DNA from: a virus
Lineage: Duplodnaviria; Caudoviricetes
Length of the DNA: 52,139 bases
IMG/VR virus record: IMGVR_UViG_3300030419_007825
Span: 1-52,139 of that record
Reading direction: 5' to 3' (one strand)
Shown: positions 984 through 27,899 of the stretch, one piece after another
Layout of the letters: each line of letters opens with the position of its first letter
Numbering within the stretch: the first letter of the stretch is position 1
The notes under the pieces: model-generated
What the model saw: only the letters and a program-made list of their open reading frames with translations
What the model was told of the DNA's origin: nothing
Database searches by the model: none
Position numbers and translations under genes: made by a program

Positions 984-1749
984 ACATATATCGTATTCAG
1001 AACTAAAAGATTGGGCTCATTGCCCACACTATCACAAGAAAGCATGGGTGGAAAAGGTTGCTCCCTTTGAGGGCAACGAATATACTGCCTTCGGTAGTGC
1101 AATCCATGACGTCTGCGAGAAAAAACTCCTTAAGGAAGATATTAACGAGACAGAGGTATTCCAGATTGGATTCAATAAGCGGCTGCAGGAATTGGTTGAA
1201 AAAAATATAGAGGTAAATCCACAGAATGTTGAGCAGATGAAAACAGCTGGGCCCGCAATCCTAGCGGAAGTTGAAGATGCCTTGGAAGAATATTTTGGTG
1301 ACTATGAGGTTTTCTCGTCGGAGGAAATGTTATATGTTCCCATCGAGAATTTTAATATTTTCTTTAAAGGTTTTGTTGATGCCGTCGTTAAGGTAGGAGA
1401 CACCTATCATTTATTCGACTGGAAGACTTGCTCATGGGGATGGGATTCGCGCAAGAAAGCAGAAAAGCTCGTCACATATCAGCTTACACTGTATAAGCAT
1501 TTTTTCTGTTTGAAGCACAAAATCGACCCGACTAAGGTAGAAACACACTTTGCGCTTCTTAAAAGAACAGCCAAAAAAGACCGGGTAGAGATATTTAGAG
1601 TAACGAGCGGTCCGAGAAAAACGGAAAACGCGCTTAAACTTCTCTACCAAGCAATATACAATATAACCAAAAAGTTTGCCATTAAAAATCGGCTGAATTG
1701 CCACAAGCCGTATCCGTGCAAGCTGCTCAATACCGAACATTGTCGTTAG
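967..1749 (+). CDS. Cas4/RecB-like PD-(D/E)XK exonuclease with probable Fe-S cluster
   Basis: N-terminal ISYSEL...CP, GSAIH, KGFVDAV...DWKT, YQL..Y, and a C-terminal Cys cluster (NCHKPYPCKLLNTEHC). Confidence 0.8.
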   Translation: MTTKREHISYSELKDWAHCPHYHKKAWVEKVAPFEGNEYTAFGSAIHDVCEKKLLKEDINETEVFQIGFNKRLQELVEKNIEVNPQNVEQMKTAGPAILAEVEDALEEYFGDYEVFSSEEMLYVPIENFNIFFKGFVDAVVKVGDTYHLFDWKTCSWGWDSRKKAEKLVTYQLTLYKHFFCLKHKIDPTKVETHFALLKRTAKKDRVEIFRVTSGPRKTENALKLLYQAIYNITKKFAIKNRLNCHKPYPCKLLNTEHCR

Positions 1750-1757
1750 GAGACAAA

Positions 1758-3008
1758 ATGTCAGATAAAATCAAGATCTTTACGATCAGTGACCATCCTC
1801 TATCGCCTTCTGGGGTGGGCACCCAAACAAAATATATCATTGAAGGTATGCTTAAGACTGGAAAGTATCAATTCATTAGCTTTGGCGGTGCCATGCAGCA
1901 CCCTAATCATCAGCCTCAGAAAACTGAACAGTGGGGAGAGGATTGGATTATTTGGCCGGTTGATGGTTACGGCAATCCGGATATGGTGAGAGCCATGATA
2001 AACCAGAATAAGCCTGATATTTTATGGTTTATGACAGATCCTCGTTTTTATGGTTGGTTGTGGCAGATTGAGAATGAGATTCGCGTTAACGTTCCCATGG
2101 TTTATTATCATGTGTGGGACAACTATCCCTATCCTACTTTTAACCGACCCTATTATCTGTCCAACGATCACATTGCTTGTATTTCTAAGTTGACTTATGA
2201 TATTGTACAAAACGTTGCGCCCGAAGTGGACTCTTCTTATATTCCACATGCGGTGGATGGGGATATTTTTAAGCCCTTAGACCCCAAAAAGAGTGCCGAA
2301 TTTAAGATTTCCAAGGGCTTGGGCAAGAAGTTTGTTTGTTTCTGGAATAGTCGAAACGCCCGGCGAAAACAATCAGGTACTCTTATCTGGTGGTTTAAGG
2401 AATTCTTGGATCGGGTGGGCCACGACAACGCATGCCTCATTATGCATACTGATACGAAAGATGTTCATGGTCAGGACTTAGAAGCAATAATTGCTGAACT
2501 GGGCCTAGTCAATGGCGAGGTATTGTTCTCCCGAGATAAATTAAGCGCTGCAGATCTTTCAGTTGTTTACAATATGGCCGACGTTACTCTTTGCATCTCT
2601 GATGCCGAGGGATTTGGTCTATCAACGTTGGAGTCTCTCTCCAGCGGAACGCCTATCATTGTTAATATGACCGGAGGCCTTCAGGATCAAGTGACGGATG
2701 GCGAGAATTGGTATGGGATTGGCATCGAGCCAAGCTCTAAGGCTATTATCGGCTCTCAACAGGTGCCTTATATTTATGAAGACCGCATGAGTAAGGACGA
2801 CTTCTTGGATGCTCTAGAAAAAATATATAACATGAGCACCAAAGAACGCCACGAATTAGGCCTTAAAGGGTCCGAATGGGCGCGCAATTTCTTTGGGTTT
2901 GACAAGTTCATCGAGCGATGGGATGAATTGTTTACTTCAATTCATGAAAACAAGGGTTCGTGGGAACATCGCGAAGGTTACACACCATATGAAGTGAGGG
3001 TATATTAA
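1758..3008 (+). CDS. Glycosyltransferase, GT-B fold (GT4-like)
   Basis: AEGFGLSTLESLSSGTP (ExFG...E) motif and SRNARRK. SD AGGAG before ATG 1758 (ORF track start 1698 is probably too early). Confidence 0.85.
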   Translation: MSDKIKIFTISDHPLSPSGVGTQTKYIIEGMLKTGKYQFISFGGAMQHPNHQPQKTEQWGEDWIIWPVDGYGNPDMVRAMINQNKPDILWFMTDPRFYGWLWQIENEIRVNVPMVYYHVWDNYPYPTFNRPYYLSNDHIACISKLTYDIVQNVAPEVDSSYIPHAVDGDIFKPLDPKKSAEFKISKGLGKKFVCFWNSRNARRKQSGTLIWWFKEFLDRVGHDNACLIMHTDTKDVHGQDLEAIIAELGLVNGEVLFSRDKLSAADLSVVYNMADVTLCISDAEGFGLSTLESLSSGTPIIVNMTGGLQDQVTDGENWYGIGIEPSSKAIIGSQQVPYIYEDRMSKDDFLDALEKIYNMSTKERHELGLKGSEWARNFFGFDKFIERWDELFTSIHENKGSWEHREGYTPYEVRVY

Positions 3009-3009
3009 G

Positions 3010-4263
3010 ATGAAAAAGATTTTGATAAAAGGACCGGTCTTGTCGCGCTCGGGCTATGGTGAGCAAGCGCGCTTTGCCCTAAGGGCTTTACGTAGTCGTG
3101 CGGACATATTTGACATTTATATTCTGAATATCCCATGGGGATCTACGGGGTGGTTGAGCGCAAGATCCGAAGAGACTGAGTTTATTAATTTTGCCATCAT
3201 GAAAACGGCTCAATATATCCAAGCTGGCGGCCGATTTGATATATCCCTACAGGTCACGGTACCCAATGAGTTTGAGAAAATAGCTCCTCTGAACATTGGA
3301 TACACGGCGGGCATTGAAACAAATAAGGTAGCCCCACAGTGGATTGAGAAAGGGAACGCGTCCGTCGATAAGATCATCGTTGTATCTAATCATGCTAAAA
3401 AGGTTTTTGAAGAAACCAAGTATTCCATTCAAAACAGCCAGACGGGCCAACTCATTGAAGACTGGGGACTGCAGGTCCCCGTTACGGCCGTCAACTATCC
3501 TGTGCGCCTATCGGATCCGGACCCATTAGATATCGAATTCACCACCGACAAGAACTTCCTGGTTGTTTCTCAATGGGGCCCTCGAAAGAATCTAGATAAT
3601 ACTATTAGATGGTTTGTGGAGGAGTTTCATGACGATGAGACGGTAGGGTTGGTATTGAAAACAAACACGGCTGCCGACTCTATCATGGACAGGGAGCACA
3701 CTGCTGCCCGGTTGCAATCTTTATTGGGCGCCCATCCTGATAGAAAATGCAAGGTTTATTTAGTTCACGGAGAAGTGACGCCTTCACATCTGACGTGGCT
3801 ATATCAACATCCCACCATGAAAGCGCTTATCAATATCGCACATGGGGAGGGATTTGGTTTACCCCTTTTTGAGGCGGCATACAACGGCCTTCCCTTGATT
3901 ACTGTTCCGTGGAGCGGTCAGATGGACTTTATTTGCAAGCCGAACAAAAAAGGGAAGAACTATCCTCGGGTTATTAAAGTTGATTTTAACATCGATAAGG
4001 TACAGAAATCAGCTGTTTGGAAGGGTGTGATCCAGGAAGACTCAATGTGGGCGCATGCAAAAGAAGGGTCCTATAAAGCAGGCCTCCGTGCAGCTATAGA
4101 TAAAGAGGGACATCACCGAAAAGAAGCCATAGCCCTCCAGAAACATATACTGGAGAATTTTACCGAGGAAGAGATGTATAAGCAGTTTGCTGAAAATGTT
4201 TATAATCCTTCGGAGGAGGAGATGGAGTGGCTAGCAGCCCTCTCTGAAATAGAGATATTATAA
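3010..4263 (+). CDS. Glycosyltransferase, GT-B fold (GT4-like)
   Basis: SGYG N-terminal motif, PRKN, and HGEGFGLPLFEAA. Confidence 0.85.
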   Translation: MKKILIKGPVLSRSGYGEQARFALRALRSRADIFDIYILNIPWGSTGWLSARSEETEFINFAIMKTAQYIQAGGRFDISLQVTVPNEFEKIAPLNIGYTAGIETNKVAPQWIEKGNASVDKIIVVSNHAKKVFEETKYSIQNSQTGQLIEDWGLQVPVTAVNYPVRLSDPDPLDIEFTTDKNFLVVSQWGPRKNLDNTIRWFVEEFHDDETVGLVLKTNTAADSIMDREHTAARLQSLLGAHPDRKCKVYLVHGEVTPSHLTWLYQHPTMKALINIAHGEGFGLPLFEAAYNGLPLITVPWSGQMDFICKPNKKGKNYPRVIKVDFNIDKVQKSAVWKGVIQEDSMWAHAKEGSYKAGLRAAIDKEGHHRKEAIALQKHILENFTEEEMYKQFAENVYNPSEEEMEWLAALSEIEIL

Positions 4264-5114
4264 TGAAGGTTTTATTTGTTGCCGACCACTATCAGGAACA
4301 AATGAAATTTGGCGGAGGAGAAAACAACGATTCGGTTTTAATTCATCATCTCCGAAGTCATGACAATGTCGATATAACGTGCCTATACACTTCCACCACA
4401 ACTGTGGACCAAATGCGGGAGTACGATAAGGTCATTGTTGGAAACTTTATCTTTTTAAGCGAAGAAGCAAAACAATATTTGATCAACAATAAGAAATACT
4501 TGATCTATGAGCATGATCATAAATATGTAAAAACTAGAGATCCCTCAAAATTTGTAGACTTTATAGTTCCTTCCGATCAATTGGTTAATAGAGATTTTTA
4601 TGAAGGAAGTGATCAAGTAGTGGTTTTGAGCAAGATTTGCGAGGAAGTGTTAACAACGAATATTCCAGCCGCCAAGGTGCACAGTATTGGCTGCAGCTTA
4701 TGGACAAAGGACTTTTTTCATTTAGTTAAAAATTTAGAGTTATCTCCGAAGACGAGAGATGTGTGTATACTTCAAAGTCCCAATCCTACTAAAAATTATG
4801 CAGCCACTGTTAACTATTGCATTGCGAAGGGTCTGGATTATACCGCCATCTTTTCCCCAAGTCACACAAAGTTTCTAGAACAGATGGCATGCCATAAGAG
4901 ATTTTTATTTATGCCCACGGTACTAGAAACGTTTTCGCGTGTTTGCGCAGAAGCCAAAATGTTAGGACTTCAAATAATTACAAATCCAAAAATGATCGGG
5001 ATGTTTAGTGAAACATGTAGCAGCCTTTCTGGGTCTGAACTCCAATCGGCGCTATTAGAACGAAATGAAAGAGCCTTAAAATATTTTTCGGATTGGGTAT
5101 TATCCGATGGTTAG
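4263..5114 (+). CDS. Putative glycosyltransferase (GT-B, divergent)
   Basis: GGGE N-terminal loop, YEHDH, and ETFSRVCAEAKMLG (E-x7-E GT4-like motif). Confidence 0.65.
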   Translation: MKVLFVADHYQEQMKFGGGENNDSVLIHHLRSHDNVDITCLYTSTTTVDQMREYDKVIVGNFIFLSEEAKQYLINNKKYLIYEHDHKYVKTRDPSKFVDFIVPSDQLVNRDFYEGSDQVVVLSKICEEVLTTNIPAAKVHSIGCSLWTKDFFHLVKNLELSPKTRDVCILQSPNPTKNYAATVNYCIAKGLDYTAIFSPSHTKFLEQMACHKRFLFMPTVLETFSRVCAEAKMLGLQIITNPKMIGMFSETCSSLSGSELQSALLERNERALKYFSDWVLSDG

Positions 5115-5976
5115 AATAGGCTTGGCATCCGATCATAATGGCGTCGCACTAAAAAAGGAAATGGCGGAGTTTCTGCGTAAATTAGAAGATGTGTGTATTG
5201 TAGATTTGGGCCCCTTTGAAGAGGGTAAAAAAGTAGACTATGTTGATTATGCCAATCAATTGGCACAAATTTTATCTAATGGAGATGTTGATAAAGGCAT
5301 CTTAATATGTGGTACGGGCGTTGGCATGAGTATTGCTGCCAATCGGTTTGAGAAAGTCCGGGCTGCTCTTGTTCATAACATCCTCACCGCTCCAAAGTGC
5401 CGGGAACACAATGATGCCAATGTACTGTGCTTGGGAGCGTGGGTGGCAACGGCAGAGGAAAACTTTAAGATACTTGAGTCTTGGTTGGAGACGGATTTCG
5501 GCCATGGCCGACACGTCAAAAGGGTGGAGAAATTATCTACTTCCAAGCAAAAGATTGTTTTTACAAATGGTGTTTTTGATATTCTTCATGCTGGTCACAT
5601 CAATTTGCTAAATTTTGCTAAGTCCTTAGGGGATAAGCTGATTGTGGGCATCAATTCCGATGCAAGCGTTCGGTCAATTAAAGGGGAGAATCGCCCAGTG
5701 AATAAGGAGACTGATCGCAAGGCACTGCTGGAGGCCCTCGCTCCGGTGGATGAGGTGATAATTTTTGATGACGAAAAGGCCCACACTTTAGTACTCGAAG
5801 TCAGTCCATCTGTGCTCGTGAAGGGAGGGGAGTGGACAGCCGACGAGGTCCGCGCTCGCGATGGAATACCCCCAGAGGTGGAGATTAAAATTTACCCGAT
5901 TGTGGGGGACTATTCTACAACTGCTATTATTAAGAAAATTCATGAAAAAGATGATTGGAAAAAGCAAGGATCCTAA
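5107..5976 (+). CDS. Fusion of an RpiB/LacAB sugar-phosphate isomerase with an HldC/RfaE-II-like sugar-1-phosphate nucleotidyltransferase
   Basis: N-half has ASDHNG, DYVDY, ICGTGVGMSIAANR, REHNDANVLCLG, GRHVKRV (RpiB). C-half has FTNGVFDILHAGH, GINSDASVRSIKGENRP, KGG and YSTT (HldC-type, HxGH). Confidence 0.9.
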   Translation: MVRIGLASDHNGVALKKEMAEFLRKLEDVCIVDLGPFEEGKKVDYVDYANQLAQILSNGDVDKGILICGTGVGMSIAANRFEKVRAALVHNILTAPKCREHNDANVLCLGAWVATAEENFKILESWLETDFGHGRHVKRVEKLSTSKQKIVFTNGVFDILHAGHINLLNFAKSLGDKLIVGINSDASVRSIKGENRPVNKETDRKALLEALAPVDEVIIFDDEKAHTLVLEVSPSVLVKGGEWTADEVRARDGIPPEVEIKIYPIVGDYSTTAIIKKIHEKDDWKKQGS

Positions 5977-6877
5977 AAGGGTTTTGGTGTTGGGAGATTC
6001 CATTTTAGACCATGATATTGTCTGCAATGCAATGGGTCTTTCTTTGGAGACGCCGACTTTAAAAGCCCGTCTTCATTCGGAGAGTTACAAATTCGGTGGC
6101 GCCGCCAACGTTGTTAATAATTTATTAGCTCTCGGATCTTTTGTAACTTACGTTACTCCTGTGGCTGCCGATAAATATGAGTCAAAGTACCATAAGTGGG
6201 AGCATCCTCGATTAGATCTGATCCCCCTTAGTTACCAGGGACAAAACATAGTAAAGTCTCGATATTGGATCAAGCGCGGTGAACACTCTTATAAGCACCT
6301 TCAAATTAACCAAGGAACCTTATTTGTCGACGTGGAAAAAGCGCTAAAGACGATTAGCGATATTGTAGTCGAGGGGATATATGATGCAATCATTTTAGTG
6401 GACTATCGAGGCGGCCTATTTTCCAGGAATGAAGTCAGTCGTAAGTTGGTAGAGGCGATATCATCTACTCATTCATGTGTTTATGCCGCATCGCAAGTGT
6501 CGGATAGGGAGAGTCAATACTCACTTTTTGAAGGGGTAGATGTTATTTGTTTGAATGAACAAGAAGCGCGCTCAGAGCTTGAAGATTTTAGTCCAATCCC
6601 CGAGGATATTTTGCGTCTTTCTCGGCATTTGGATACCAGAGTTTGTGTTACATTGGGATCGCATGGAAGCACTCTACATACTCGTATCGACACTGTTGAA
6701 AGTGCTGATGCCTATAGTGTGGCCGTTAAAGATACTTGCGGCGCCGGCGACAGTTTCCTCGCCGCCCTAGTGGCATCAGACGAGGATTTAGAGTTTAGCA
6801 ATAAGTGGGCCGCAGCATCGACACAACAGATAGGAACAAGTGTCCCTAACTTAGAAGAGGTGTTGGCATGGGAATAA
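5951..6877 (+). CDS. PfkB/ribokinase-family sugar kinase, HldA/RfaE-I-like
   Basis: VLVLGDSILD, SLETP, GGAANV, LNEQEA, VTLGSHG, DTCGAGDSF. Likely start is ATG 5951 (or 5942). Confidence 0.85.
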   Translation: MIGKSKDPKRVLVLGDSILDHDIVCNAMGLSLETPTLKARLHSESYKFGGAANVVNNLLALGSFVTYVTPVAADKYESKYHKWEHPRLDLIPLSYQGQNIVKSRYWIKRGEHSYKHLQINQGTLFVDVEKALKTISDIVVEGIYDAIILVDYRGGLFSRNEVSRKLVEAISSTHSCVYAASQVSDRESQYSLFEGVDVICLNEQEARSELEDFSPIPEDILRLSRHLDTRVCVTLGSHGSTLHTRIDTVESADAYSVAVKDTCGAGDSFLAALVASDEDLEFSNKWAAASTQQIGTSVPNLEEVLAWE

Positions 6878-7548
6878 AAGACAGGGTTTTAGAGGCCAAT
6901 CAATGGATTGTAGATAAAGGCCTTGTTGAGCTAACATGGGGGAATGTGAGTGCGGTGGCGACCAATGGGGATTCGGTGGTTATTAAGCCATCGGGAGTTC
7001 AATTAGATACCACTACCAGAGATGACATGGCTGCCGTTGATTGGGATGGTAATCATCTTTCGGGACAAAAACCGTCGGTAGATACCCCATCTCATTTGGC
7101 TTTGTATAATAGCTTTCCTGAAATTGCTAGCATTGTTCACACGCATTCTAAGTATGCTACTATATTCGCCCAAGCGGGGCACCCAATTCCGTGCTTGGGG
7201 ACAACACATGCCGATTATTTTTATGGGGATGTTCCCTGTGTGCCCCACCCCCCCGAGAAGGAAGTCGAAAATGACTACGAGGAAAATACTGGCCGAATAA
7301 TAGGTGAATATTTTAGCGAGAATGAGTTAAACTGTTTGTATATTCCGGGATGTGTGGTAAAGGGACATGGAGTTTTTACATGGGGTCAAACGATAGAAGC
7401 CGCCTTGGAAAATGCATATGTGCTAGAGGTGGTAGCAGAAATGGCATATAAAACGTTGATGCTGGACCGCTATAGTTGCTTGGCTGATTTTGTTTTAGAA
7501 AAGCATTTCGGCCGCAAACATGGGGATACTAAATATTATGGCCAGTGA
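6868..7548 (+). CDS. araD: L-ribulose-5-phosphate 4-epimerase (AraD/UlaF/SgbE-like, class II aldolase fold)
   Basis: TWGNVS, IKPSGV, KPSVDTPSH, HTHS, GTTHADYFYG, HGVFTWG, and C-terminal KHFGRKHG..YYGQ, all diagnostic of AraD. Confidence 0.85.
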   Translation: MGIKDRVLEANQWIVDKGLVELTWGNVSAVATNGDSVVIKPSGVQLDTTTRDDMAAVDWDGNHLSGQKPSVDTPSHLALYNSFPEIASIVHTHSKYATIFAQAGHPIPCLGTTHADYFYGDVPCVPHPPEKEVENDYEENTGRIIGEYFSENELNCLYIPGCVVKGHGVFTWGQTIEAALENAYVLEVVAEMAYKTLMLDRYSCLADFVLEKHFGRKHGDTKYYGQ

Positions 7549-7951
7549 AATTAAGTACGGACCGCAAGAGTTGCCTCCTATTGATAGCGTGGTGAAAGAG
7601 GTGCACAAATATTGGGGAGACATGAAGACCCTCTTTGAAAATGATCAATATTCTGTAAAGAGAATATTCATGAAAAAGGGAACCCAAAGTAGTTTAGAAT
7701 ACCATGTTAAAAAAGAGGAATCTTACTACATAGAATCCGGGAAGTTGAAAGTAGGTACTCGCATAGGCCGCGCCCGAAACACCTCTCTCGTGTTAAACCA
7801 AGGTGATGTATTTCATATTCCACTGGGATTTATGCATATGAGGATAGCCCTAGAGGATACGGTCATCATAGAGTTTTCTACTCTGGATGACGATGCTGAT
7901 TCTCACATAGTAGAGGACGGCAAAACTTATGTTCATAAGGAGGAAGAATAA
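7538..7951 (+). CDS. Cupin, sugar-isomerase-like (mannose-6-phosphate/lyxose isomerase type)
   Basis: KYWG, SLEYHVKKEESYYIESG, GDVFHIPLGFMH and IIEFST cupin motifs. Confidence 0.75.
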   Translation: MASEIKYGPQELPPIDSVVKEVHKYWGDMKTLFENDQYSVKRIFMKKGTQSSLEYHVKKEESYYIESGKLKVGTRIGRARNTSLVLNQGDVFHIPLGFMHMRIALEDTVIIEFSTLDDDADSHIVEDGKTYVHKEEE

Positions 7952-7952
7952 G

Positions 7953-8621
7953 ATGAAGTTATTTATTGATACAGCAAATTTAGATGAGATTAGTACTGCT
8001 CTAGAGTATGGTCTCGCACAGGGGGTAACAACAAATCCCTCTCTGCTGGCTAAAGAGCCGCAAGCAGACTTTTATGCTCATATCCAGAGGATTGCTGATG
8101 TGTGCACCGAGTTAAGCCCGGATATTCCTTTGTCCGTAGAGGTTTTCGCACAAACACCAGATGCAATGATCGACCAGGCCCATCATATCGTGGGAACAAT
8201 TAAATACACTAATTTAAATATCAAAATCCCCGTGGGGTTTGATGAAATGAGGGTGGTAAAAGCCCTCAGCAATGATGGGGTGAGGGTGAACTGTACTTGC
8301 TGTTTTACAGCCACTCAGATGCAGCTCGCCGCAGCCGCTGGCGCTCGTTATGTATCACTTTTTTACAATCGCGCTCTGGACAGCCAGATCGACGCCCTGC
8401 AAACTCTGCGCCGCACTAGAAAATTTATTGATACTAATCTTCTCAATTGTGAGATCATTGCGGGAAGTATTAGAAATGCTTATGACCTTGAGGACTGTTG
8501 GGATGCTGGGTGCGATATTGTAACAGCAGGGATGCCAGCCATACGCAAGTCGGTCGCGCACTTAAAGACAGACGAATCAGTGGAAGGGTTTTTGAAGGAT
8601 TTTGCAGCATGGATCGAATGA
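7953..8621 (+). CDS. Transaldolase (short TalC/FSA family)
   Basis: FIDTAN, GVTTNPSL, SVEV, catalytic Lys in IKIP, VNCT, YVSLFYNR, AGSIR. SD AGGAGG upstream of ATG 7953. Confidence 0.9.
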   Translation: MKLFIDTANLDEISTALEYGLAQGVTTNPSLLAKEPQADFYAHIQRIADVCTELSPDIPLSVEVFAQTPDAMIDQAHHIVGTIKYTNLNIKIPVGFDEMRVVKALSNDGVRVNCTCCFTATQMQLAAAAGARYVSLFYNRALDSQIDALQTLRRTRKFIDTNLLNCEIIAGSIRNAYDLEDCWDAGCDIVTAGMPAIRKSVAHLKTDESVEGFLKDFAAWIE

Positions 8622-8938
8622 CTTACGTAATTGATATTGACGACACCATATGTCGTACCAACGGCAGCGATTACGAAAATTCCCAACCTCTAAATGACCG
8701 GATTGCAGCGATAAATAAGTTGTATGAGGAGGGGCATACCATATTGTTTTTAACCGCTCGTGGAATGTGTCGAAACAACAATGATCAATTAGGCGCGATC
8801 GCTGAATTGTACAATTTTACCCACGATCAACTTGTGGCCTGGGGAGTTAAATTTCATAAATTGTTTTTGGGCAAGCCGGCTGGGGATGTGTACATAGACG
8901 ACAAAGCCTGTAAGGATACGGATTTTTTTGATGTATGA
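8618..8938 (+). CDS. Small capless HAD-superfamily phosphatase (capsule-biosynthesis type)
   Basis: DIDDT (DxD motif I), TAR (motif II), GKP..DVYIDDK (motifs III/IV). ATGA overlap with the transaldolase stop. Confidence 0.8.
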   Translation: MTYVIDIDDTICRTNGSDYENSQPLNDRIAAINKLYEEGHTILFLTARGMCRNNNDQLGAIAELYNFTHDQLVAWGVKFHKLFLGKPAGDVYIDDKACKDTDFFDV

Positions 8939-9626
8939 AACTCCGGACTGGTTTTTTGACAAGTTAAGGCAAAAACACAACTTTTGCTATGTAAGATACA
9001 ATGATGGCGAAATGATGGGCATTGATAGGGTTGGGGCCATAGCAGCAAGAGGGGACCAAGTTGTTAACCGTTCCTTACATGAGAAATTAATCGAGGGTAT
9101 CTCGCACCGGCAGGAAGATTATTATATTGGACTTCCCTGTGGGACTTGCTTCCCCAAACACGCCCAATTAGCCGCAGAGCTGACGCGGGGCCATGGTTGG
9201 ATAACATCAGCAGTGCTGCTAACCAATAGAAATTGGAAAAAATTCTATGATAATTTTCCGGACGCTTGCGGTGAGAGGTCTGTAATATGGGTGGGTGGCA
9301 AATCTCAATCTAAGCAAAATTTAATAGACTATGGACTGAATATAAAGAAGTGTGTTCTGGTGCCAGAAAAAAATAGTTGGACTTACTATGAAAAGTTAAA
9401 AGAATTAGTGCCCCCTCTTTTTGTTAAGAACGACATTGTCGCTGTATCGCTGGGTCCGACAGCAAGGGTGTTGTGTAAAGAATGGTTTGAGGAATACCCC
9501 GATACAACTTTTATAGATATGGGGAGCCTCTTAGACCCAGTAACGCGAGGGGTGTATTTTACTGCCCATAAGGGCTGGGACGAGACAGGGTTCAACCTGC
9601 AGAACAGGTGTCCAGAGTGCAATTGA
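8931..9626 (+). CDS. GT-D fold (DUF1792-like) glycosyltransferase
   Basis: RYNDGE, LGPTARVL and IDMGS match the GT-D signatures R(F/Y)xDGE, LGPxA and IDxG. Confidence 0.7.
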   Translation: MYETPDWFFDKLRQKHNFCYVRYNDGEMMGIDRVGAIAARGDQVVNRSLHEKLIEGISHRQEDYYIGLPCGTCFPKHAQLAAELTRGHGWITSAVLLTNRNWKKFYDNFPDACGERSVIWVGGKSQSKQNLIDYGLNIKKCVLVPEKNSWTYYEKLKELVPPLFVKNDIVAVSLGPTARVLCKEWFEEYPDTTFIDMGSLLDPVTRGVYFTAHKGWDETGFNLQNRCPECN

Positions 9627-10468
9627 AGAAAGTGCTTTTTGCCGGCCCATGGGTGGGAGAGTTTGGTTGGGAACTATTTTGCTGGCATGCCTACGTTAGA
9701 AGCCTTTCAAGGTTTTATGATGAGACTGTGTGTGTTGGCCCACCACATTCCGAGTTCATGTATAGAGATTTTTGTGATAAGTACATAAACTTCACCCCTG
9801 AATATGGTGATTATAGAGACTCGTTTTACAAAGTTGGATTTTCTATTGATGGTCCCCTTATTCGTGGACTAATGAAAAAAGCAGAAATCTCTACAGAAGA
9901 AAATCAGGTTTCGATATTTGCACCTCGGAGAATTGGAGATCCGCCGCGTACACATTACAATGAAAAGTTCCAATTTGGCAATCAACTTATTGCACCTGAG
10001 TATATTAAATTTGGAACACAAAGAGAAGAATACAAAAACACCATTATTTTTCACGCTAGGAATAGGACCTTGCGTCAGGGAGATAACTGGCACGAAGATA
10101 ATTGGAAACCCTTAGCTGAATCTTTGCTTACTAAAGGATACGAGATAGTTTCAATAGGGCTCAAGAGCGAGTCGCTGCATATTGAGAACACAACAGACAA
10201 GAGAGAATGCGATCAACAAGAGTTATTAGATATTTTACATAGTGGTGTTGCGATTTTTGGACCATCATCCGGCGCAATGCATTTAGCAACCCTATGCGGA
10301 TGCTCGCAGATAGTTTGGACAACCGACTATAATTTAGAGAGGTATACAAAAAATTGGAACCCTTTCGAAACGCCTGTGTTATTCTTGTCGAAGCATGGCT
10401 GGCAACCACCTCCCGAATATGTATTTGAGGAATTTGGCAAATGGGGGCGCCACGGAGGAGGTATATAG
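9608..10468 (+). CDS. GT9-like (heptosyltransferase-like) glycosyltransferase
   Basis: N-terminal GEFGWEL, NW...NW..L, and GPSSGAMHLA (xDSGxxHLA-like GT9 motif). Start codon uncertain (9608/9617/9623). Confidence 0.6.
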   Translation: MSRVQLKKVLFAGPWVGEFGWELFCWHAYVRSLSRFYDETVCVGPPHSEFMYRDFCDKYINFTPEYGDYRDSFYKVGFSIDGPLIRGLMKKAEISTEENQVSIFAPRRIGDPPRTHYNEKFQFGNQLIAPEYIKFGTQREEYKNTIIFHARNRTLRQGDNWHEDNWKPLAESLLTKGYEIVSIGLKSESLHIENTTDKRECDQQELLDILHSGVAIFGPSSGAMHLATLCGCSQIVWTTDYNLERYTKNWNPFETPVLFLSKHGWQPPPEYVFEEFGKWGRHGGGI

Positions 10469-10470
10469 GA

Positions 10471-11133
10471 ATGAGTAAGAGTAGCGAAATTGAAAAGCAT
10501 TTTTTGGATGCATTTGCAACCACTAATAAAGAGTTTATTTATATACCAATACCAAAGACGGGCACCAGATCAATCCTTAAACTGATGAATAAGATTTATG
10601 GAAAAGACCTTAAATTTTCTCACCACTCCTATAAATGGGTAGCCAACACGATCTCCCAAGCAGAGTTGGCGCGCGCAAAAGTTTTTGCAACCGTTAGAAA
10701 TCCCTGGGCTAGGATGTATTCTATATTTTCATATTATGGACCTCAGAGTAAGTTCCCTCTTAAGTCAAAAAACTTCAGGGATTTTATAATGACATCTCCC
10801 ATAGAATATGCCAATTGGTATCAGGACGAGGGCTGCTGGGAAGATTTTTATAATCAATCTCGATGGCTCGCAGATGTGTCCGGAGAAATAAAAGTTGATA
10901 AAATATTTAAATTAGAAAATTTAAATAATCGAGATCTTAATGGTTTTTTTGGAGTAAGTGGGCACAAGATTTATCATGTAAATCGGTCTACCTCCAAGAA
11001 GCAACATTACTCTTTATTTTACGATGATGATATGATTGAAGTCGTTTATAAATTGTGCAAAGAGGACATCGACAATTTTAATTATAATTTTGAATACAAA
11101 GAGAACACAGAGAAGAGGGATAAAAATGGATAA
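10471..11133 (+). CDS. Sulfotransferase (Sulfotransfer_2-like)
   Basis: 5'-PSB IPKTGTRSI, 3'-PB VRNPWARMYS, KLENL, and C-terminal DIDNFNYNF. Confidence 0.8.
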   Translation: MSKSSEIEKHFLDAFATTNKEFIYIPIPKTGTRSILKLMNKIYGKDLKFSHHSYKWVANTISQAELARAKVFATVRNPWARMYSIFSYYGPQSKFPLKSKNFRDFIMTSPIEYANWYQDEGCWEDFYNQSRWLADVSGEIKVDKIFKLENLNNRDLNGFFGVSGHKIYHVNRSTSKKQHYSLFYDDDMIEVVYKLCKEDIDNFNYNFEYKENTEKRDKNG

Positions 11134-11755
11134 AAAATTGTTAAAGCTTACGGAAGATGGCTTGAGCTTATGGTATGAAGAAAATTATGATAAAAGTTGG
11201 TTTGTTGAGTGCACGGGTGTGGAATATTTAAAGAATTATTACACAAATCATCGCCCTAGACTGTTTGAGCGCTATCACGGATGGTTTGGTAGCCTAGGCC
11301 TAACAGGACATGGACTAGATCTTGGATTCACCAATGGAAGAGGGATTTACTTCTTTTCTAGGATCTTCCCACACTGCAAAATTACGGCCATTGATTTTAA
11401 TAAAAATACAGAATTAATACACGACCACCTAAAGAATTTAATTCCACAGATTGTAGAACTAAGAACCGAAAATTGTTCTGCTCTTTCCGATCCAGATGAA
11501 AAATATGATTTTTGCACCTCGACAGATTTTTATGAACATGTAGATGAGAGCACATATTTTAAGTCAATAAGAGAAGTTCATAGAGTTTTAAAAAAGCAAG
11601 GAAAATTTTGTGTATATTTAGGAAAAACAATCCTACCGGAGCACATTAATTTGAGACCTGATTGGCAAGTATTCCAAGATATGAAACATAACGGCTTTAA
11701 ATTTATAGATAAAAGAAATGATTTACTAGTTTTTGAAAAAAATGAAACTTCTTAG
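11126..11755 (+). CDS. Class I SAM-dependent methyltransferase
   Basis: LDLGFTNG motif I, AIDFN, YDF....FYEHV, EVHRVLKKQG. Confidence 0.75.
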   Translation: MDKKLLKLTEDGLSLWYEENYDKSWFVECTGVEYLKNYYTNHRPRLFERYHGWFGSLGLTGHGLDLGFTNGRGIYFFSRIFPHCKITAIDFNKNTELIHDHLKNLIPQIVELRTENCSALSDPDEKYDFCTSTDFYEHVDESTYFKSIREVHRVLKKQGKFCVYLGKTILPEHINLRPDWQVFQDMKHNGFKFIDKRNDLLVFEKNETS

Positions 11756-12749
11756 CGTAATTGGCACAAGGCCACAATATATTAAAATAAAGCCATTCTA
11801 TGATTTTTGCAAAAGGCAAAACATAGATCATCAAATTCTGGATACACTTCAGCATTACTCCGATAATGTTTCGAAAGATTTAATTGGTGACCTTGACCTC
11901 AGAATAGATTTTACCTTAAAAACACGAAAAGACAGCGAGCTTTCCTTCATCGCGGGTGCACTAGAAGAAATAGGACAAATTCTTCAAAGAGAAAGTCCCG
12001 ATTATGTTTTGGTTTATGGTGACACGAACTCTACCCTGTGTGCGTCTTTAGCGGCCTATAAATTGAATATTCCCGTTGCTCATGTGGAAGCAGGGCTGCG
12101 ATGTGGAGATATTCGCGTCCCGGAAGAGGTAAACCGGATCTTTGCAGATACAGTAGCGGCGATACAATTGTGTTCTTCCAAAGCTGGAATGAAAAACCTT
12201 CAACGTGGAATATATTGTGGGGATTTAGAGTATGAGATTTTAAACACCATAAACCCTTCAGTTGTACATGGCGATTTTGGAGTAATGACAATTCATCGAC
12301 AGAGTAATACCACGCCAGAGCAATTGCACAAGATTCTAGATTTTTGCTCCCAAATTCCTCACCATATTCGTTTTTATGTACACCACCGTACGTTGCCATT
12401 CTTGCGCTACGTCGACCTTCCTACCAATATAGAGGTGTACGAATCGTGTCCTTATTCGGAGATGGTGAAGAACTTGGCAGAATGTAAATTTATTTTGACA
12501 GACTCGGGTGGGATTCAGAAAACGGCCCCTTTTTTTGGCAAGAAAACTTTGGTGTTTCGGTCTAAAATTGAGTGGACCGAGACCGAAGAGGCCGGGTATG
12601 TCAAAAAAGCGGATTATAGCAAAGAGAGCCTAAATTGGCTCCTATCAGGGAATACACGACGCTCGCCTGCTTTCTATGGGAGCACCACTAACACGACTTC
12701 GGAGATAATCTATAATTCCATCGCCCAAGACCTGGAGGGTCGAGCCTAA
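11742..12749 (+). CDS. Non-hydrolysing UDP-sugar 2-epimerase (WecB/WbpI-like)
   Basis: GTRPQYIK, YGDTNSTL, HVEAGLR, PEEVNR, TDSGGIQK, EWTE. Confidence 0.9.
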   Translation: MKLLSVIGTRPQYIKIKPFYDFCKRQNIDHQILDTLQHYSDNVSKDLIGDLDLRIDFTLKTRKDSELSFIAGALEEIGQILQRESPDYVLVYGDTNSTLCASLAAYKLNIPVAHVEAGLRCGDIRVPEEVNRIFADTVAAIQLCSSKAGMKNLQRGIYCGDLEYEILNTINPSVVHGDFGVMTIHRQSNTTPEQLHKILDFCSQIPHHIRFYVHHRTLPFLRYVDLPTNIEVYESCPYSEMVKNLAECKFILTDSGGIQKTAPFFGKKTLVFRSKIEWTETEEAGYVKKADYSKESLNWLLSGNTRRSPAFYGSTTNTTSEIIYNSIAQDLEGRA

Positions 12750-13837
12750 TGAGTGTGCCATTATTTGATTTGCGGAGAGTTATTCATCCGCATGCGTCTT
12801 CTTTAAGGAGGGCATTTGAATCCTCTCTCGAAACCTGTCATTTTATCAACGGTCCTGCAGTTACAGACTGGGAGGCCGACTTGGATGACTATTTGGGGGC
12901 TGGTAAGAGTTTGGGCATCTCAAGTGGAACGGATGCATTGTTGGCCATTTTTATGGCCCTAGGACTTGAACCTGGGAGCGAGATATTGGTGACGTCCTTT
13001 ACATTTGTCGCCTCAGCGACGTCTATCGTAAGAGCAGGACTCAAGCCGGTGTTCGTTGATACAGCACCCCAATCTTTCCACCCTGGTCTTGAAGAATACG
13101 CGGCCGCCATGACTACAAATACTAAGGCAGTATTGTTAGTTCATATCTTCGGTGCGCCCAACAATATGGCCGAGATGGTTAACTTTTGCAAAACCAATGA
13201 TCTCCTATTAATTGAAGATTGCGCCCAGTCTTTAGGCGCCGAATGGGAAGGTCAAAAAATAGGTACTTTTGGGGATGCTAGTGCGTTCAGTTTTTTCCCG
13301 GCAAAGAACCTAGGTTGTTTTGGGGACGGCGGCGCCGTATCGACACCCTCGACCAAAATATATGAAACTATTAAAGCAATTAGGTCACATGGTGCAAAAA
13401 CAAAGTACCATACCGAAATGATGGGAGGCAATTTTCGTCTAGACACAATTCAGGCATCAATCTTGAGTGTTCTCTTGCCTGCATTGTCCGGTTGGCTTTC
13501 CCAGAGGGGCGAGAATGCTTTATATTATCTTGAGCACATTAATGAAAGTAAAAGCACACAACTTCCTGAGAATCTCAAAGGGCATTCGTGGAACCAGTTT
13601 ACTCTACGATCGTCCAGGCGCGATGCTCTTAAAATATATTTAGATGAAAATAACATAGGAAATGCAGTATACTATCCTATACCGTTACACAAACAACCTT
13701 TATTTGCCACCACTACTACCCAGTGTCTTCCGAACGTAGAAAAACTGTGTAAAGAGGTTTTATCGCTTCCAATATATCCTGGATTAACGCGAGATGAGCA
13801 AATAGAAGTAGTCGATAAGATTAACTGTTTTAAATAA
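12749..13837 (+). CDS. DegT/DnrJ/EryC1/StrS sugar aminotransferase (WbpE-like)
   Basis: SGTDAL, FTFVAS, EDCAQSLG, SFFPAKNLGCFGDGG, NFRLDTIQA, YYPIPLH, LSLPIYP. Confidence 0.9.
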   Translation: MSVPLFDLRRVIHPHASSLRRAFESSLETCHFINGPAVTDWEADLDDYLGAGKSLGISSGTDALLAIFMALGLEPGSEILVTSFTFVASATSIVRAGLKPVFVDTAPQSFHPGLEEYAAAMTTNTKAVLLVHIFGAPNNMAEMVNFCKTNDLLLIEDCAQSLGAEWEGQKIGTFGDASAFSFFPAKNLGCFGDGGAVSTPSTKIYETIKAIRSHGAKTKYHTEMMGGNFRLDTIQASILSVLLPALSGWLSQRGENALYYLEHINESKSTQLPENLKGHSWNQFTLRSSRRDALKIYLDENNIGNAVYYPIPLHKQPLFATTTTQCLPNVEKLCKEVLSLPIYPGLTRDEQIEVVDKINCFK

Positions 13838-13872
13838 TGTTGGTTGACAAGGACTGAACAGGTGGGAACACA

Positions 13873-14547: not shown

Positions 14548-14574
14548 TTAAGTGCCTGAAAAAAGGAAAATAAA

Positions 14575-15516: not shown

Positions 15517-15519
15517 AAG

Positions 15520-16545: not shown

Positions 16546-16628
16546 TTTAATTATAAGAAAGGCTAGTTTGCGAAGCTTAGGGAGAAATAGGGAATGAAAT
16601 TAGACTCAAGGGAAGAGGAAATTTACGC

Positions 16629-27889: not shown

Positions 27890-27899
27890 GATTTAGATT

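Follow-up and report, generated by a model that had tools for sequence, protein, structure and literature searches.

LmbR, a transaldolase of lincomycin biosynthesis, uses ribose-5-P as its acceptor. The GDP-octose of this pathway is made by LmbR, an octose-building enzyme, together with the LmbN isomerase, LmbP, the LmbK phosphatase, and the LmbO nucleotidyltransferase (PMC12945683), and AprG is another octose-building transaldolase (PMC13707489). A phage route to UDP-D-arabinofuranose, associated with arabinosyl-5-hydroxycytosine DNA, has been described for RB69, DLP3, and HY126 and includes the AfhE kinase/uridylyltransferase and the AfhF phosphatase (PMC13326640).

The window analyzed here, the whole 52,139-nucleotide stretch, comes from an uncultured T4-like phage and is a partial record covering about 29% of a phage genome. 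Between positions 5107 and 8938, we found six adjacent + strand genes that overlap by 4–35 bases or are separated by a 1-base gap when refined starts are used (Table 1). Pfam and NCBIfam matches confirmed the functions assigned to these coupled genes in a preliminary description of the sequence, and catalytic residues were intact in alignments of the encoded enzymes to homologs. This locus is one instance of a widespread cassette common to many phages, bacteria, and archaea. No published description of the cassette was found in a full-text literature search; its genes most likely assemble and activate a C7 or C8 sugar through an undescribed route from which the usual first enzyme is missing.

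Table 1. Cassette genes and flanking glycosyltransferase-like genes in the window.
Feature	Position	Strand	Evidence
GT-B-fold glycosyltransferase-like, 283 aa	4263..5114	+	predicted structure; directly upstream of cassette
RpiB-nucleotidyltransferase fusion, 289 aa	5107..5976	+	PF02502 E 1.9e-46, PF01467 E 4.2e-18
PfkB-family sugar kinase, 311 aa	5942..6877	+	PF00294 E 9.9e-17
AraD-type class II aldolase/epimerase, 226 aa	6868..7548	+	NF006047 274 bits
Cupin, single-domain, 137 aa (143 aa from start 7520)	7538..7951	+	PF00190, PF01050
Small transaldolase, 222 aa	7953..8621	+	PF00923 E 1.3e-42
Minimal HAD phosphatase (mini-HAD), 106 aa	8618..8938	+	DIDDT motif, TIGR01689
GT-D-fold glycosyltransferase-like	8928..9626	+	PF08759 E 6.3e-8, 33.1 bits (cut-off 27)
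Divergent GT9-like (heptosyltransferase-family) glycosyltransferase	9608..10468	+	profile-profile match

Of 56 related virus loci, 39 carried the complete six-gene set, as did 10 of 28 cellular loci, totals that include many near-duplicates; gene order was identical within 5 kb in 31 of the virus loci, and the kinase gene followed the fusion gene in 53. By contrast, no kinase, cupin, HAD, or AraD gene lay beside stand-alone RpiB at any of 52 control loci, and a transaldolase gene did so at just one. Because the set recurs across virus loci but not at these controls, its grouping is not chance, and the gene-neighborhood search proposed in the preliminary description thus uncovered a conserved neighborhood.

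We favor, with moderate confidence, a model in which the cassette produces an ADP-activated higher-carbon aldose independently of GmhA and passes it to a GT9-like transferase for use in a glycan that the neighboring phage glycosylation cluster would assemble. Within this model, an octose is our tentative choice of product, and a non-standard heptose, the less likely of the two, is rather doubtful. All steps are inferred. AraD, from the cassette or the host, would interconvert D-xylulose-5-P and L-ribulose-5-P, and the remodeled RpiB domain would convert a ketopentose-5-P to an aldopentose-5-P acceptor. The transaldolase would then join a C3 unit from fructose-6-P or sedoheptulose-7-P to the aldopentose-5-P to give octulose-8-P or, alternatively, would use an erythrose-4-P acceptor to give sedoheptulose-7-P. 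The cupin, which resembles mannose-6-P isomerase, would turn the ketose phosphate into an aldose phosphate, the PfkB kinase would phosphorylate C1, the mini-HAD would remove the terminal phosphate, and the HldE-II-like domain would form the ADP-sugar. As we discuss below, properties of the individual proteins bear on these assignments.

First, the N-terminal half of the fusion protein scored 143.7 bits against TIGR01120 (rpiB; cut-off 138.65), and the catalytic residues Asp9, His10, Cys68, Thr70, His101, Arg135, and Arg139 were kept in 41–42 of 42 distinct virus sequences. Trp112 of the fusion aligns with Arg110 of E. coli RpiB, and tryptophan occupied this position in 69/69 cassette RpiB domains, whereas 46/51 stand-alone RpiBs had arginine; Asn11, Lys97, and Gly132-Glu133 were further cassette traits. 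By offset, Arg110 corresponds to Arg113 of M. tuberculosis RpiB, which has been described as binding the pentose phosphate and partly covering the tunnel (PMC3755991). Either RpiB or the cupin may perform the isomerization proposed earlier. Plain ribose-5-P supply by the RpiB domain is unlikely because its phosphate-end pocket is remodeled; as a counterpoint, the domain passes the rpiB equivalog cut-off and so may simply produce ribose-5-P. A separate stand-alone RpiB was also kept by four of five cellular carriers, and long housekeeping transaldolases accompanied the cassette copy in all five. These housekeeping copies, together with the Trp-for-Arg change, are evidence that the cassette RpiB domain and transaldolase may be committed, specialized enzymes.

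Second, the C-terminal half of the fusion, which belongs to the cytidylyltransferase-like PF01467 family, had rfaE_dom_II as its best NCBIfam domain (158 bits; cut-off 181.5) and is an HldE-domain-II-like nucleotidyltransferase that probably forms ADP-sugars. The best NCBIfam match of the kinase was TIGR02198 (rfaE_dom_I; 96.6 bits vs a cut-off of 345), and its GAGD catalytic Asp was present in 40/40 sequences; the enzyme is a distant paralog of HldA/HldE domain I, the kinase acting at the anomeric position of heptose-7-P. The nearest relatives of the kinase and nucleotidyltransferase are therefore the two HldE domains, both matched below their cut-offs, and the previously suggested logic of isomerase, kinase, phosphatase, and nucleotidyltransferase fits the cassette.

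Third, the transaldolase is of the TalC/Thermoplasma type, with 3s0c as its best PDB match (E 3.3e-35), and Asp6, Glu60, Lys86, Thr110, Phe132, and Arg135 align with residues of 3s0c and were kept in 39–40 of 40 sequences. Phe versus Tyr at the position equivalent to Phe132 separates transaldolase from fructose-6-P aldolase, and the Phe found here therefore favors the former and disfavors a fructose-6-P aldolase identity. We propose that this enzyme would form the long ketose phosphate by C3 transfer.

Fourth, the cupin matched PF01050 (mannose-6-P isomerase C-terminal; 32.4 bits, cut-off 23.6) and PF00190 (E 7.9e-10) and was the most conserved cassette protein, with identity between loci of up to 88% and invariant Glu54, His56, Glu61, and His100 in 25 sequences. 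Its AlphaFold2 model (pLDDT 91.8) matched the CapF cupin best (Z 15.4), followed by T. kodakarensis phosphomannose isomerase (Z 14.3) and D-lyxose isomerases (Z 11.9–12.7), and its Atlas neighbor clusters bear PF01050 or PF07385. The cupin is thus a candidate ketose-phosphate/aldose-phosphate isomerase replacing GmhA, although the fold search could not tell a sugar-phosphate isomerase from CapF, a nucleotide-sugar epimerase.

Fifth, AraD exceeded the NF006047 cut-off of 257 bits and aligned over its full length with E. coli AraD (1jdi; E 4.8e-60); Asp76, His95, His97, Asp120, His171, and Tyr229 were conserved in 36/36 sequences, and the Ser75 position was Val in 32/36. It is a predicted L-ribulose-5-phosphate 4-epimerase and an optional cassette member. 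Its inclusion in the module, as first described, holds for this locus, where the catalytic residues are present, but is not universal: AraD was missing from 5/56 virus loci, one of them a 93%-complete genome, and from 7/28 cellular loci. Four of five large genomes with an AraD-less cassette carry AraD elsewhere (330–346 bits), and in 3/3 carriers from the candidate phyla radiation (CPR) AraD occurs solely inside the cassette; its loss is thus seen mainly where a separate copy sits elsewhere in the genome. The kept catalytic residues, these elsewhere copies, and the cassette-only CPR genes are evidence that AraD may perform its ordinary job in the pathway. AraD was also absent from the archaeal bin G012, of roughly 1 Mb, and this absence and that from the 93%-complete phage mean that it is not obligatory, unless it is supplied by the host or the bin is incomplete or viral.

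Finally, the divergent GT9-like transferase is a candidate user of the cassette product. A profile of seven homologs of this gene matched a profile of seven cassette-flanking GT9 genes (hhalign probability 98%, E 2.4e-13); the 84 matched columns take in the SSGxMHLA stretch. As a single sequence, the transferase had weak matches (PF01075 E 0.071; BLASTP E 0.003). GT9 genes lay beside the cassette in 8 of 16 annotated loci (6/7 cellular, 2/9 virus; part of the ORFs of each locus annotated). A downstream GT9-like user, as anticipated earlier, is thus encoded, but the directly downstream gene is GT-D-like, and a homolog of it occurred at only one other locus, L012. The gene directly upstream of the cassette had no Pfam match; its AlphaFold2 model (pLDDT 94.4) matched GT4/GT-B enzymes (BshA, HepE, GlgM) in Foldseek (E 3e-7 to 5e-7, TM 0.5–0.66). 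Homologs lay upstream of the fusion gene at 11 loci, directly so in eight (L003, L004, L006, L009–L012, L048) and about 3–6 kb away, with 23–26% identity, in L008, L022, and L063. At some of the loci, the upstream gene and the cassette are conserved together.

Could the cassette make ADP-heptose without GmhA? The transaldolase would make sedoheptulose-7-P from fructose-6-P and erythrose-4-P, the cupin would do the job of GmhA, and the kinase, HAD, and nucleotidyltransferase would complete the pathway, with RpiB and AraD merely topping up pentose-phosphate pools. We regard this alternative as unlikely, although it accords with the HldE-like kinase and nucleotidyltransferase, the adjacent GT9 genes, and the resemblance of the cupin to mannose-6-P isomerase, whose local chemistry is that of GmhA. 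It also accords with the lack of SIS genes in cassette phages: as previously noted, no SIS_2, GmhA, or GmhB match occurred in the window, which spans only part of the phage genome, and none of 10 virus records that carry the cassette had SIS_2, five of these records being at least 90% complete. But this alternative gives no role to AraD or to the RpiB domain, which is always present as a fusion with the nucleotidyltransferase and is remodeled at its phosphate end, and it leaves a dedicated transaldolase unexplained in genomes already holding housekeeping ones. Moreover, among the five cellular carriers, a canonical HldE-type kinase (327–382 bits) was encoded elsewhere, intact in G007, G008, and G009 and in pieces in G006, strong GmhA matches (180–190 bits) were present in G006, G007, and G009, and the canonical GmhA, nucleotidyltransferase, and kinase genes were clustered in G007 and G009; despite these genes, G006–G009 keep the cassette kinase (63–179 bits in these genomes), nucleotidyltransferase, and GT9. 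Because cellular carriers hold canonical GmhA and HldE elsewhere, the cassette product probably differs from ordinary ADP-heptose, although a second pathway copy in a genome is no proof of a different product. The earlier claim of a different product gained support in this way; the stereochemistry suggested with it is putative. At cellular loci L079 and L084, a GmhA-like SIS_2 gene directly adjoins the cassette, which weakens the case there for replacement of GmhA by the cupin.

The mini-HAD keeps another, improbable, alternative alive. This protein matched TIGR01689 ("capsule biosynthesis phosphatase"; E 3.3e-11) below its cut-off, retained the HAD motif residues in 31–35 of 35 sequences, and is proposed to be a terminal-phosphate phosphatase acting on a sugar bisphosphate. 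In the PDB it matched 9iqw, a "capsule biosynthesis protein" (E 1.2e-13), and 1xpj (E 3.5e-7), the latter being the best PDB match of DLP3 gp81, a homolog of the arabinofuranose-1,5-bisphosphate phosphatase (PMC13326640). By sequence, the mini-HAD belongs to the family of this phage phosphatase, and its only characterized relatives, as given in that source, act on pentofuranose 5-phosphates (PMC13326640). The product could therefore be a nucleotide-activated pentofuranose (D-arabinofuranose, ribofuranose, or L-arabinofuranose), made in parallel to the phage UDP-arabinofuranose route by isomerase, C1 kinase, 5-phosphatase, and nucleotidyltransferase, with RpiB and the cupin as two successive isomerases and the transaldolase and AraD feeding the pentose pool; RpiB and AraD are indeed pentose-phosphate enzymes. 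Against this idea, the transaldolase was present in 51/56 virus loci (of the five lacking it, L007, L021, L033, and L052 are short or cut, and L057 has only a distant stand-alone RpiB) and is kept even in cells with housekeeping copies, a DNA-hypermodification context was not seen in the window, and the HldE-paralog kinase and nucleotidyltransferase and the GT9 neighbors are all known for pyranose heptoses. To our knowledge, these three families act on heptoses only. That the cassette consists of auxiliary metabolic genes that only shift the balance of the pentose-phosphate pathway in the infected host, with no biosynthetic pathway, is very improbable: transaldolase is well known as an auxiliary gene of cyanophages (phrog_440), and RpiB, AraD, and transaldolase all use central sugar phosphates, but the genes keep a fixed order with a kinase, phosphatase, and nucleotidyltransferase inside glycosyltransferase clusters, occur also in cellular genomes with housekeeping copies, and encode a transaldolase less than 40% identical to that of any isolate phage.

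How does the higher-carbon-sugar model compare with known systems? Like the canonical ADP-heptose pathway, with which it coexists in the cellular carriers examined, the cassette combines a ketose-phosphate isomerase, C1 kinase, terminal phosphatase, and adenylyltransferase, has a kinase and nucleotidyltransferase paralogous to HldE domains I and II, and lies near GT9-family transferases; it differs in having a cupin and a 106-residue TIGR01689-type HAD rather than SIS-type GmhA and HAD-IIIA GmhB and in adding the RpiB fusion, transaldolase, and, usually, AraD. Compared by steps rather than sequences, it shares with the lincomycin pathway a transaldolase that makes a long ketose phosphate, with an isomerase, a kinase, a phosphatase, and a nucleotidyltransferase acting after it. 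The lincomycin isomerase, however, is a SIS-domain enzyme rather than a cupin, the product is a GDP-sugar rather than the ADP-sugar probably made by the HldE-II-type domain, and the setting is an antibiotic cluster rather than surface-glycan clusters of phages and uncultured microbes. The UDP-D-arabinofuranose route is likewise phage-encoded, with an isomerase, C1 kinase, nucleotidyltransferase, and terminal phosphatase of the same mini-HAD family (PMC13326640), but uses a SIS-type arabinose-5-P isomerase, an aminoglycoside/choline-kinase-type kinase, and a MurU-like nucleotidyltransferase, lacks transaldolase, RpiB, AraD, and cupin, and delivers its product to DNA. Four-gene sets in the glycan clusters of T4-like cyanomyoviruses (e.g., P-TIM68 gp191-195, S-SSM7 126-131) encode paralogs of the cupin (39% identity), the mini-HAD (47%), the kinase, and the nucleotidyltransferase, annotated as "cysteine dioxygenase", "phosphoheptose isomerase", "carbohydrate kinase", and "heptose 1-P adenylyltransferase", respectively, but no RpiB fusion, transaldolase, or AraD. 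The two sets can co-occur in a single phage (L003, L004, L009), which suggests that they make different products.

We lean towards an ADP-activated higher-carbon sugar as the product of the six-gene cassette, because ordinary ADP-heptose and a nucleotide-activated pentofuranose would each leave genes unexplained and an octose would use every gene. The six genes that the preliminary description had reported at 5107-8938, encoding an RpiB-nucleotidyltransferase fusion, a PfkB-type kinase, an AraD-like epimerase, a cupin, a transaldolase and a mini-HAD phosphatase, are all there, with neighbours that overlap by 4-35 bases or are spaced by 1 base. The reported absence of a SIS-domain GmhA and of GmhB also held within the window (~29% of the genome), where neither GmhA (TIGR00441, PF13580) nor GmhB (TIGR00213) was matched. 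SIS_2/GmhA was found in 0 of 10 cassette-bearing virus records, five of them at least 90% complete. The best NCBIfam match of the kinase, TIGR02198 (HldE domain I/HldA), was far below its cut-off (96.6 versus 345 bits), and the nucleotidyltransferase half was closest to TIGR02199 (HldE domain II/HldC; 158 bits, E 1.3e-46, versus a cut-off of 181.5).

Coordinates of the cassette genes, of their surroundings in the window and of related features in other records (L, virus or cellular loci; G, cellular carrier genomes).
Feature	Record	Coordinates	Strand
Cassette genes, starts refined from sequence	window	5107, 5942, 6868, 7538 (or 7520), 7953, 8618	+
Gene directly upstream of cassette	window	4263-5114	
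GT9-like gene	window	9608-10468	
Long glycan cluster, single run	window	1698-17489	+
Cluster section with sulfotransferase-like, methyltransferase, UDP-GlcNAc 2-epimerase, DegT aminotransferase, formyltransferase, GFO/IDH/MocA oxidoreductase, GT4 and SDR epimerase genes	window	10441-17489	
gp55-like late sigma factor	window	18253-18939	
gp25- and gp6-like baseplate wedge proteins	window	27488-29717	
Four very large ORFs (2038, 3033, 1052, 1173 aa) adjoining baseplate genes	window	21330-27446, 31251-40352, 41419-48098	
Long cellular cupin protein	L072	9904-10632	
Long cellular cupin protein	L077	9904-10632	
Long cellular cupin protein	L059	9852-10571	
Long cellular cupin protein	L079	9662-10435	
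Long cellular cupin protein	L084	4826-5605	
Long archaeal fusion relative	L060	7719-8999	
B12-binding radical SAM, AraD-less cassette	L019	4514-5992	
SPASM radical SAM and MptE-like gene, AraD-less cassette	L025	10845-11792	
Second kinase and cupin pair	L003	12384-13300	
Second kinase and cupin pair	L004	11081-12000	
Second kinase and cupin pair	L009	11058-12300	
Paralogous mini-HAD and cupin	L001 (P-TIM68)	5353-9116	
Paralogous mini-HAD and cupin	L002 (S-SSM7)	8007-10781	
Small transaldolase with weak GmhA-like SIS gene	G009	C62:81579-82822	
Small transaldolase with weak GmhA-like SIS gene	G006	C20:7556-9314	
Small transaldolase with weak GmhA-like SIS gene	G007	C3:784574-786390	

The GT9-like enzyme that had been proposed downstream as a user of the sugar is encoded by the second gene after the cassette and not by the first, which is GT-D-like and was rejected as the GT9 gene on that ground. 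A single-sequence search with the second gene gave nothing significant (PF01075, E 0.071). A profile of seven homologues matched seven cassette-linked GT9 genes with an hhalign probability of 98% (E 2.4e-13) over only 84 columns, in the C-terminal nucleotide-sugar-binding half, and the GT9-like enzyme is therefore real. The gene directly upstream of the cassette yielded a model (pLDDT 94.4) with a short structure like that of a GT-B glycosyltransferase. When part of the ORFs of nine virus and seven cellular loci were annotated with Pfam, a GT9 gene (PF01075, the heptosyltransferase family) adjoined the cassette in six of the seven cellular loci (L077, E 2.4e-26; L075, E 3.7e-22; L084, E 1.8e-21; L079, E 1.5e-18; L076, E 1.4e-16; L059, fused to a GT2 domain) and in two of the nine virus loci (L056 and L050). 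In the seventh cellular locus, L072, a genome search placed a GT9 match just beside the cassette.

The gene set recurs in other genomes. Virus contigs scanned with the single fusion protein gave no match, and an alignment of 32 fusion relatives was required; it retrieved 56 virus loci and 80 loci from species-representative genomes, all of which were searched by tblastn with the proteins of the window. This search for a conserved neighbourhood, suggested in the preliminary description, found all six genes in 39 of 56 virus loci (31 in the same order within 5 kb), in 10 of 28 cellular loci with the fusion (four in the same order within 5 kb) and in none of 52 control loci with a stand-alone RpiB (none in the same order within 5 kb), counts that overstate independent cases because near-identical loci were kept. 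Five genes without AraD occurred in 5 virus, 7 cellular and 0 control loci. The set was partial in 12 virus loci, several of which end at contig edges, and in 11 cellular loci, many on short contigs. Kinase, cupin, HAD and AraD matches were absent from all 52 control loci, and a transaldolase was matched in one. Metagenomes contain thousands of relatives of the fusion protein, and both domains are present in all of the best 120; among isolate phage genomes, 132 records matched and not one of them reached 80% coverage of the fusion. Carriers include Acidobacteriaceae (contigs of 0.93 and 0.96 Mb), Bryobacterales, Armatimonadetes, Parcubacteria, Saccharibacteria, Doudnabacteria, Pace- and Woesearchaeota, Pelagibacteraceae and one Prochlorococcus single-cell assembly; some of the groups named last may be phage DNA in bins. 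Uncultured phages commonly carry the cassette, as do CPR bacteria, DPANN archaea, marine cells of the SAR11 type and Acidobacteria of soil. Full-text searches, which covered few subscription papers and main texts only, returned no description of this gene set, and the LPS-type genes listed in the available part of a pelagimyophage paper comprise only 'rfaE' and glycosyltransferases (PMC7029224).

Several relatives depart from the arrangement in the window. Some archaeal fusion relatives (P0002, P0004, P0031 and the one in L060) are 441-469 residues long; they contain additional sequence, placed between the two domains or after them, and also match PF06574. The AraD-less virus cassettes of L019 and L025 adjoin radical SAM genes, and their glycan context differs from that of the window. 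In L003, L004 and L009 a second kinase and cupin pair, of the cyanophage type, is found a few kb downstream of the cassette, with 22-26% and 37-39% identity to the proteins of the window, and one phage may therefore make two different sugars by paralogous sets. In the isolate cyanophages P-TIM68 and S-SSM7, a paralogous mini-HAD is labelled 'phosphoheptose isomerase' and a cupin 'cysteine dioxygenase', names that look wrong for these families; in P-TIM68 a transketolase-like gene adjoins the kinase.

The RpiB domain passes the rpiB equivalog TIGR01120 (143.7 bits, cut-off 138.65), and its catalytic Asp9, His10, Cys66, Thr68, His99, Arg133 and Arg137 (E. coli numbering) are retained in 41-42 of 42 sequences. 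When 69 cassette domains were compared with 51 stand-alone RpiBs, the catalytic residues were the same in both, and the position aligned to E. coli Arg110 (1nn4) was Trp in 69/69 cassette domains versus Arg in 46/51 stand-alone enzymes. Cassette domains also have an Asn after the Asp-His pair, a Lys four residues before the ring-opening His and a Gly-Glu before the first phosphate-binding Arg. Judged by its offset from the catalytic His, E. coli Arg110 would correspond to Arg113 of the M. tuberculosis enzyme, in the β5/α5 loop, which is described in a LacAB structure paper as a phosphate-binding residue that partly covers the pentose-phosphate tunnel and is missing from the hexose-phosphate enzyme LacAB (PMC3755991). 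All cassette copies, whether AraD is present or not, thus have a pocket that is remodelled at its distal end.

AraD aligned end to end with E. coli AraD (1jdi, E 4.8e-60), passed NF006047 (274 bits, cut-off 257) and fell below the equivalog TIGR00760 (256.9 bits, cut-off 389.1). Its Zn ligands and acid/base residues (D76, H95, H97, H171, D120, Y229) are conserved in 36 of 36 distinct virus sequences, and S75, a residue that we assign to the phosphate pocket, is replaced by Val in 32 of the 36. An AraD of 330-346 bits is encoded elsewhere in four of five large genomes with an AraD-less cassette, and three of three CPR genomes have AraD inside the cassette only; none was found in a ~1-Mb archaeal bin or in a 93%-complete phage. 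Separate stand-alone RpiBs are present in four of five cellular carriers, in one adjoining the main transaldolase, and long housekeeping transaldolases accompany the cassette copies in all five. On the simplest reading, AraD catalyses its usual reaction and is open to borrowing, and the RpiB domain and the transaldolase do what housekeeping enzymes do not.

The transaldolase (PF00923, E 1.3e-42) is of the small TalC/archaeal type and aligns with a Thermoplasma enzyme (E 3.3e-35); its Asp6, Glu60, Lys86, Thr110, Phe132 and Arg135 are retained in 39-40 of 40 sequences. Glu and Phe mark transaldolases, and Gln and Tyr mark fructose-6-phosphate aldolases, a rule by which its Glu and Phe speak against the latter, a reading that we rejected. 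The phosphate-site residues (R135, S167 and R169 equivalents) are all conserved and so give no hint of acceptor length. A heptose could be made from sedoheptulose 7-phosphate by the cupin, kinase, HAD phosphatase and nucleotidyltransferase, a route compatible with the parts; it would leave the fused, remodelled RpiB domain and AraD without a role, and the dedicated transaldolase would be redundant in cells.

The HAD phosphatase (106 residues, DIDDT motif) scored 43 bits against TIGR01689 'capsule biosynthesis phosphatase', below the cut-off of 162, and is therefore a relative and not a curated member; its match to HAD-SF-IIIA was weak (E 0.0074), and residues of motifs I-IV are retained in 31-35 of 35 sequences. 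Its matches among solved structures were limited to 9iqw, a 'capsule biosynthesis protein' (E 1.2e-13), and to 1xpj (E 3.5e-7). A literature search on code 9IQW found no paper; 9iqz, a nearby code, is a phage HY126 glycosyltransferase, so 9iqw may, as a guess, be HY126 AfhF. In one study, 1xpj is the best reported PDB match of DLP3 gp81, which is homologous to AfhF; this phage phosphatase makes the 1-phosphate from arabinofuranose-1,5-bisphosphate (PMC13326640). A nucleotide-activated pentofuranose is a compatible product that agrees with the family of the HAD and with the pentose enzymes. It would not account for a transaldolase that is near-universal, for a kinase and nucleotidyltransferase of HldE type or for GT9 genes nearby.

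No cassette protein is more conserved than the cupin, which shows up to 88% identity across loci, matches the C-terminal domain of type II mannose-6-phosphate isomerases (PF01050, 32.4 bits, cut-off 23.6) and has invariant Glu54, His56, Glu61 and His100. Many cupins matched its model (pLDDT 91.8) about equally, with the CapF epimerase cupin first (Z 15.4), an archaeal phosphomannose isomerase of 112 residues next (Z 14.3) and then D-lyxose isomerases (Z 11.9-12.7); fold searches (Foldseek, VIA) did not separate isomerase from epimerase cupins. Its language-model neighbours are viral cupin clusters in which 18-72% of members match the mannose-6-phosphate isomerase family or 11-35% the lyxose isomerase family, and the latter is matched directly by the distant cassette cupin of L056 and a two-cupin protein of L072. 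We read the cupin as a candidate ketose-phosphate/aldose-phosphate isomerase; it may instead act as an epimerase. Phage copies have one cupin domain only; the cellular proteins are longer, probable two-cupin proteins of ~240-260 residues with the cupin as their C-terminal half. A weak second cupin match lies just upstream in L062, L065 and L066 (tblastn), which suggests that the N-terminal half of the long proteins is also cupin-like.

Five cellular carrier genomes were examined for a parallel canonical pathway. All five have GmhA-like matches, strong (180-190 bits) in two Acidobacteriaceae and the Armatimonadetes genome. A canonical HldE-type kinase is encoded in three (327-382 bits) and, in pieces, in a fourth; the cassette kinases of these carriers scored 63-179 bits, and the nucleotidyltransferases scored 166-195 (canonical) versus 143-151 bits (cassette). 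In two genomes GmhA, nucleotidyltransferase and kinase are grouped away from the cassette, one group with a GT9 gene. The cassette, which brings a kinase, a nucleotidyltransferase and a GT9 of its own, is therefore a second pathway; this is an argument for, and no proof of, a product different from ordinary ADP-heptose. Three of the genomes (G009, G006 and G007) also have a further small transaldolase adjoining a SIS gene with weak similarity to GmhA, at a distance from the cassette and from the canonical heptose genes alike; as an LmbR/LmbN-type pairing of transaldolase and SIS isomerase, this may be yet another higher-sugar pathway.

For an octose, AraD and the RpiB domain would make an aldopentose 5-phosphate acceptor, to which the transaldolase would add three carbons (C5 + C3), as LmbR, the transaldolase of lincomycin biosynthesis, is described to do (PMC12945683). 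The cupin would then isomerise the octulose phosphate, and HldE-like steps would activate the sugar. That the acceptor is a pentose 5-phosphate, giving octulose 8-phosphate, we propose solely because the RpiB domain and AraD occur together. With an acceptor derived from L-ribulose 5-phosphate, the predicted stereochemistry would make the product a one-carbon-longer analogue of L-glycero-D-manno-heptose. Among higher-carbon sugars we favour an octose, whose overall chance we put somewhat short of even. Counted against the favoured reading were, first, the GmhA-like SIS gene beside the cassette in two cellular loci (L079 and L084); second, CapF as top fold match of the cupin; third, an RpiB domain above the rpiB cut-off; and finally, the missing AraD in one near-complete phage genome.

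A more specific version of the octose proposal, which we consider rather unlikely, is that the cassette makes, by a route new to science, an ADP-activated manno-type octose, the LPS heptose plus one carbon, assembled C5 + C3 by the transaldolase. The remodelled RpiB domain would supply an unusual aldopentose 5-phosphate acceptor, and AraD would fix the distal stereocentres as D or L while the sugar is still a precursor; in the canonical pathway the epimerase HldD does this on finished ADP-heptose. Phages, CPR bacteria, ultra-small DPANN archaea, SAR11-type cells and soil Acidobacteria would then decorate their surfaces via GT9-like transferases; in phages the sugar could be meant for the virion or for the infected cell.

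The window, a linear IMG/VR virus record of 52,139 bases estimated at ~29% of its genome, encodes gp25-, gp6- and gp55-like proteins, a PD-(D/E)XK exonuclease and several very large proteins without a family match, and is therefore from a T4-like myovirus. A cyanomyovirus or pelagimyophage was rejected as an identification, as the best gp6-like matches, in Microcystis phage Mel-JY01 and Flavobacterium phage immuto, reach 31-32% identity. The glycan cluster contains three GT4-type transferases, a GT-B-like protein, the six cassette genes, GT-D-like and GT9-like genes, a sulfotransferase, a methyltransferase, UDP-GlcNAc 2-epimerase, DegT aminotransferase, formyltransferase, GFO oxidoreductase and an SDR epimerase. 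The content of its last section is that expected for an N-formylated amino sugar and possibly a phage-made sulfated glycan. The four very large ORFs by the baseplate genes had no Pfam or PHROG matches; they may be fibres or other host-recognition proteins, and the glycosylation cluster possibly acts on them.

Higher-carbon sugars, also in ADP-activated form, influence how bacterial surfaces and phage receptors are built and how innate immunity senses bacteria, and to our knowledge heptoses have so far had one route with fixed enzyme families (GmhA, HldE, GmhB). The cassette replaces or adds four families (cupin, RpiB fusion, transaldolase and AraD) and runs alongside the canonical pathway where both exist. 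Knowledge of its product would establish a nucleotide sugar or a biosynthetic solution not seen before, give a function to thousands of metagenomic genes labelled 'rfaE', 'ribose 5-phosphate isomerase B', 'cysteine dioxygenase' or 'phosphoheptose isomerase', and reveal glycosylation targets of large marine phages. Compared with the canonical ADP-heptose pathway, the cassette lacks the SIS-domain GmhA, the HAD-IIIA GmhB and a TIGR02198-grade kinase, and resembles it in the nearby GT9-like gene, GT9 heptosyltransferases being the canonical users. With the lincomycin-type octose pathway it shares a dedicated transaldolase within the cluster.
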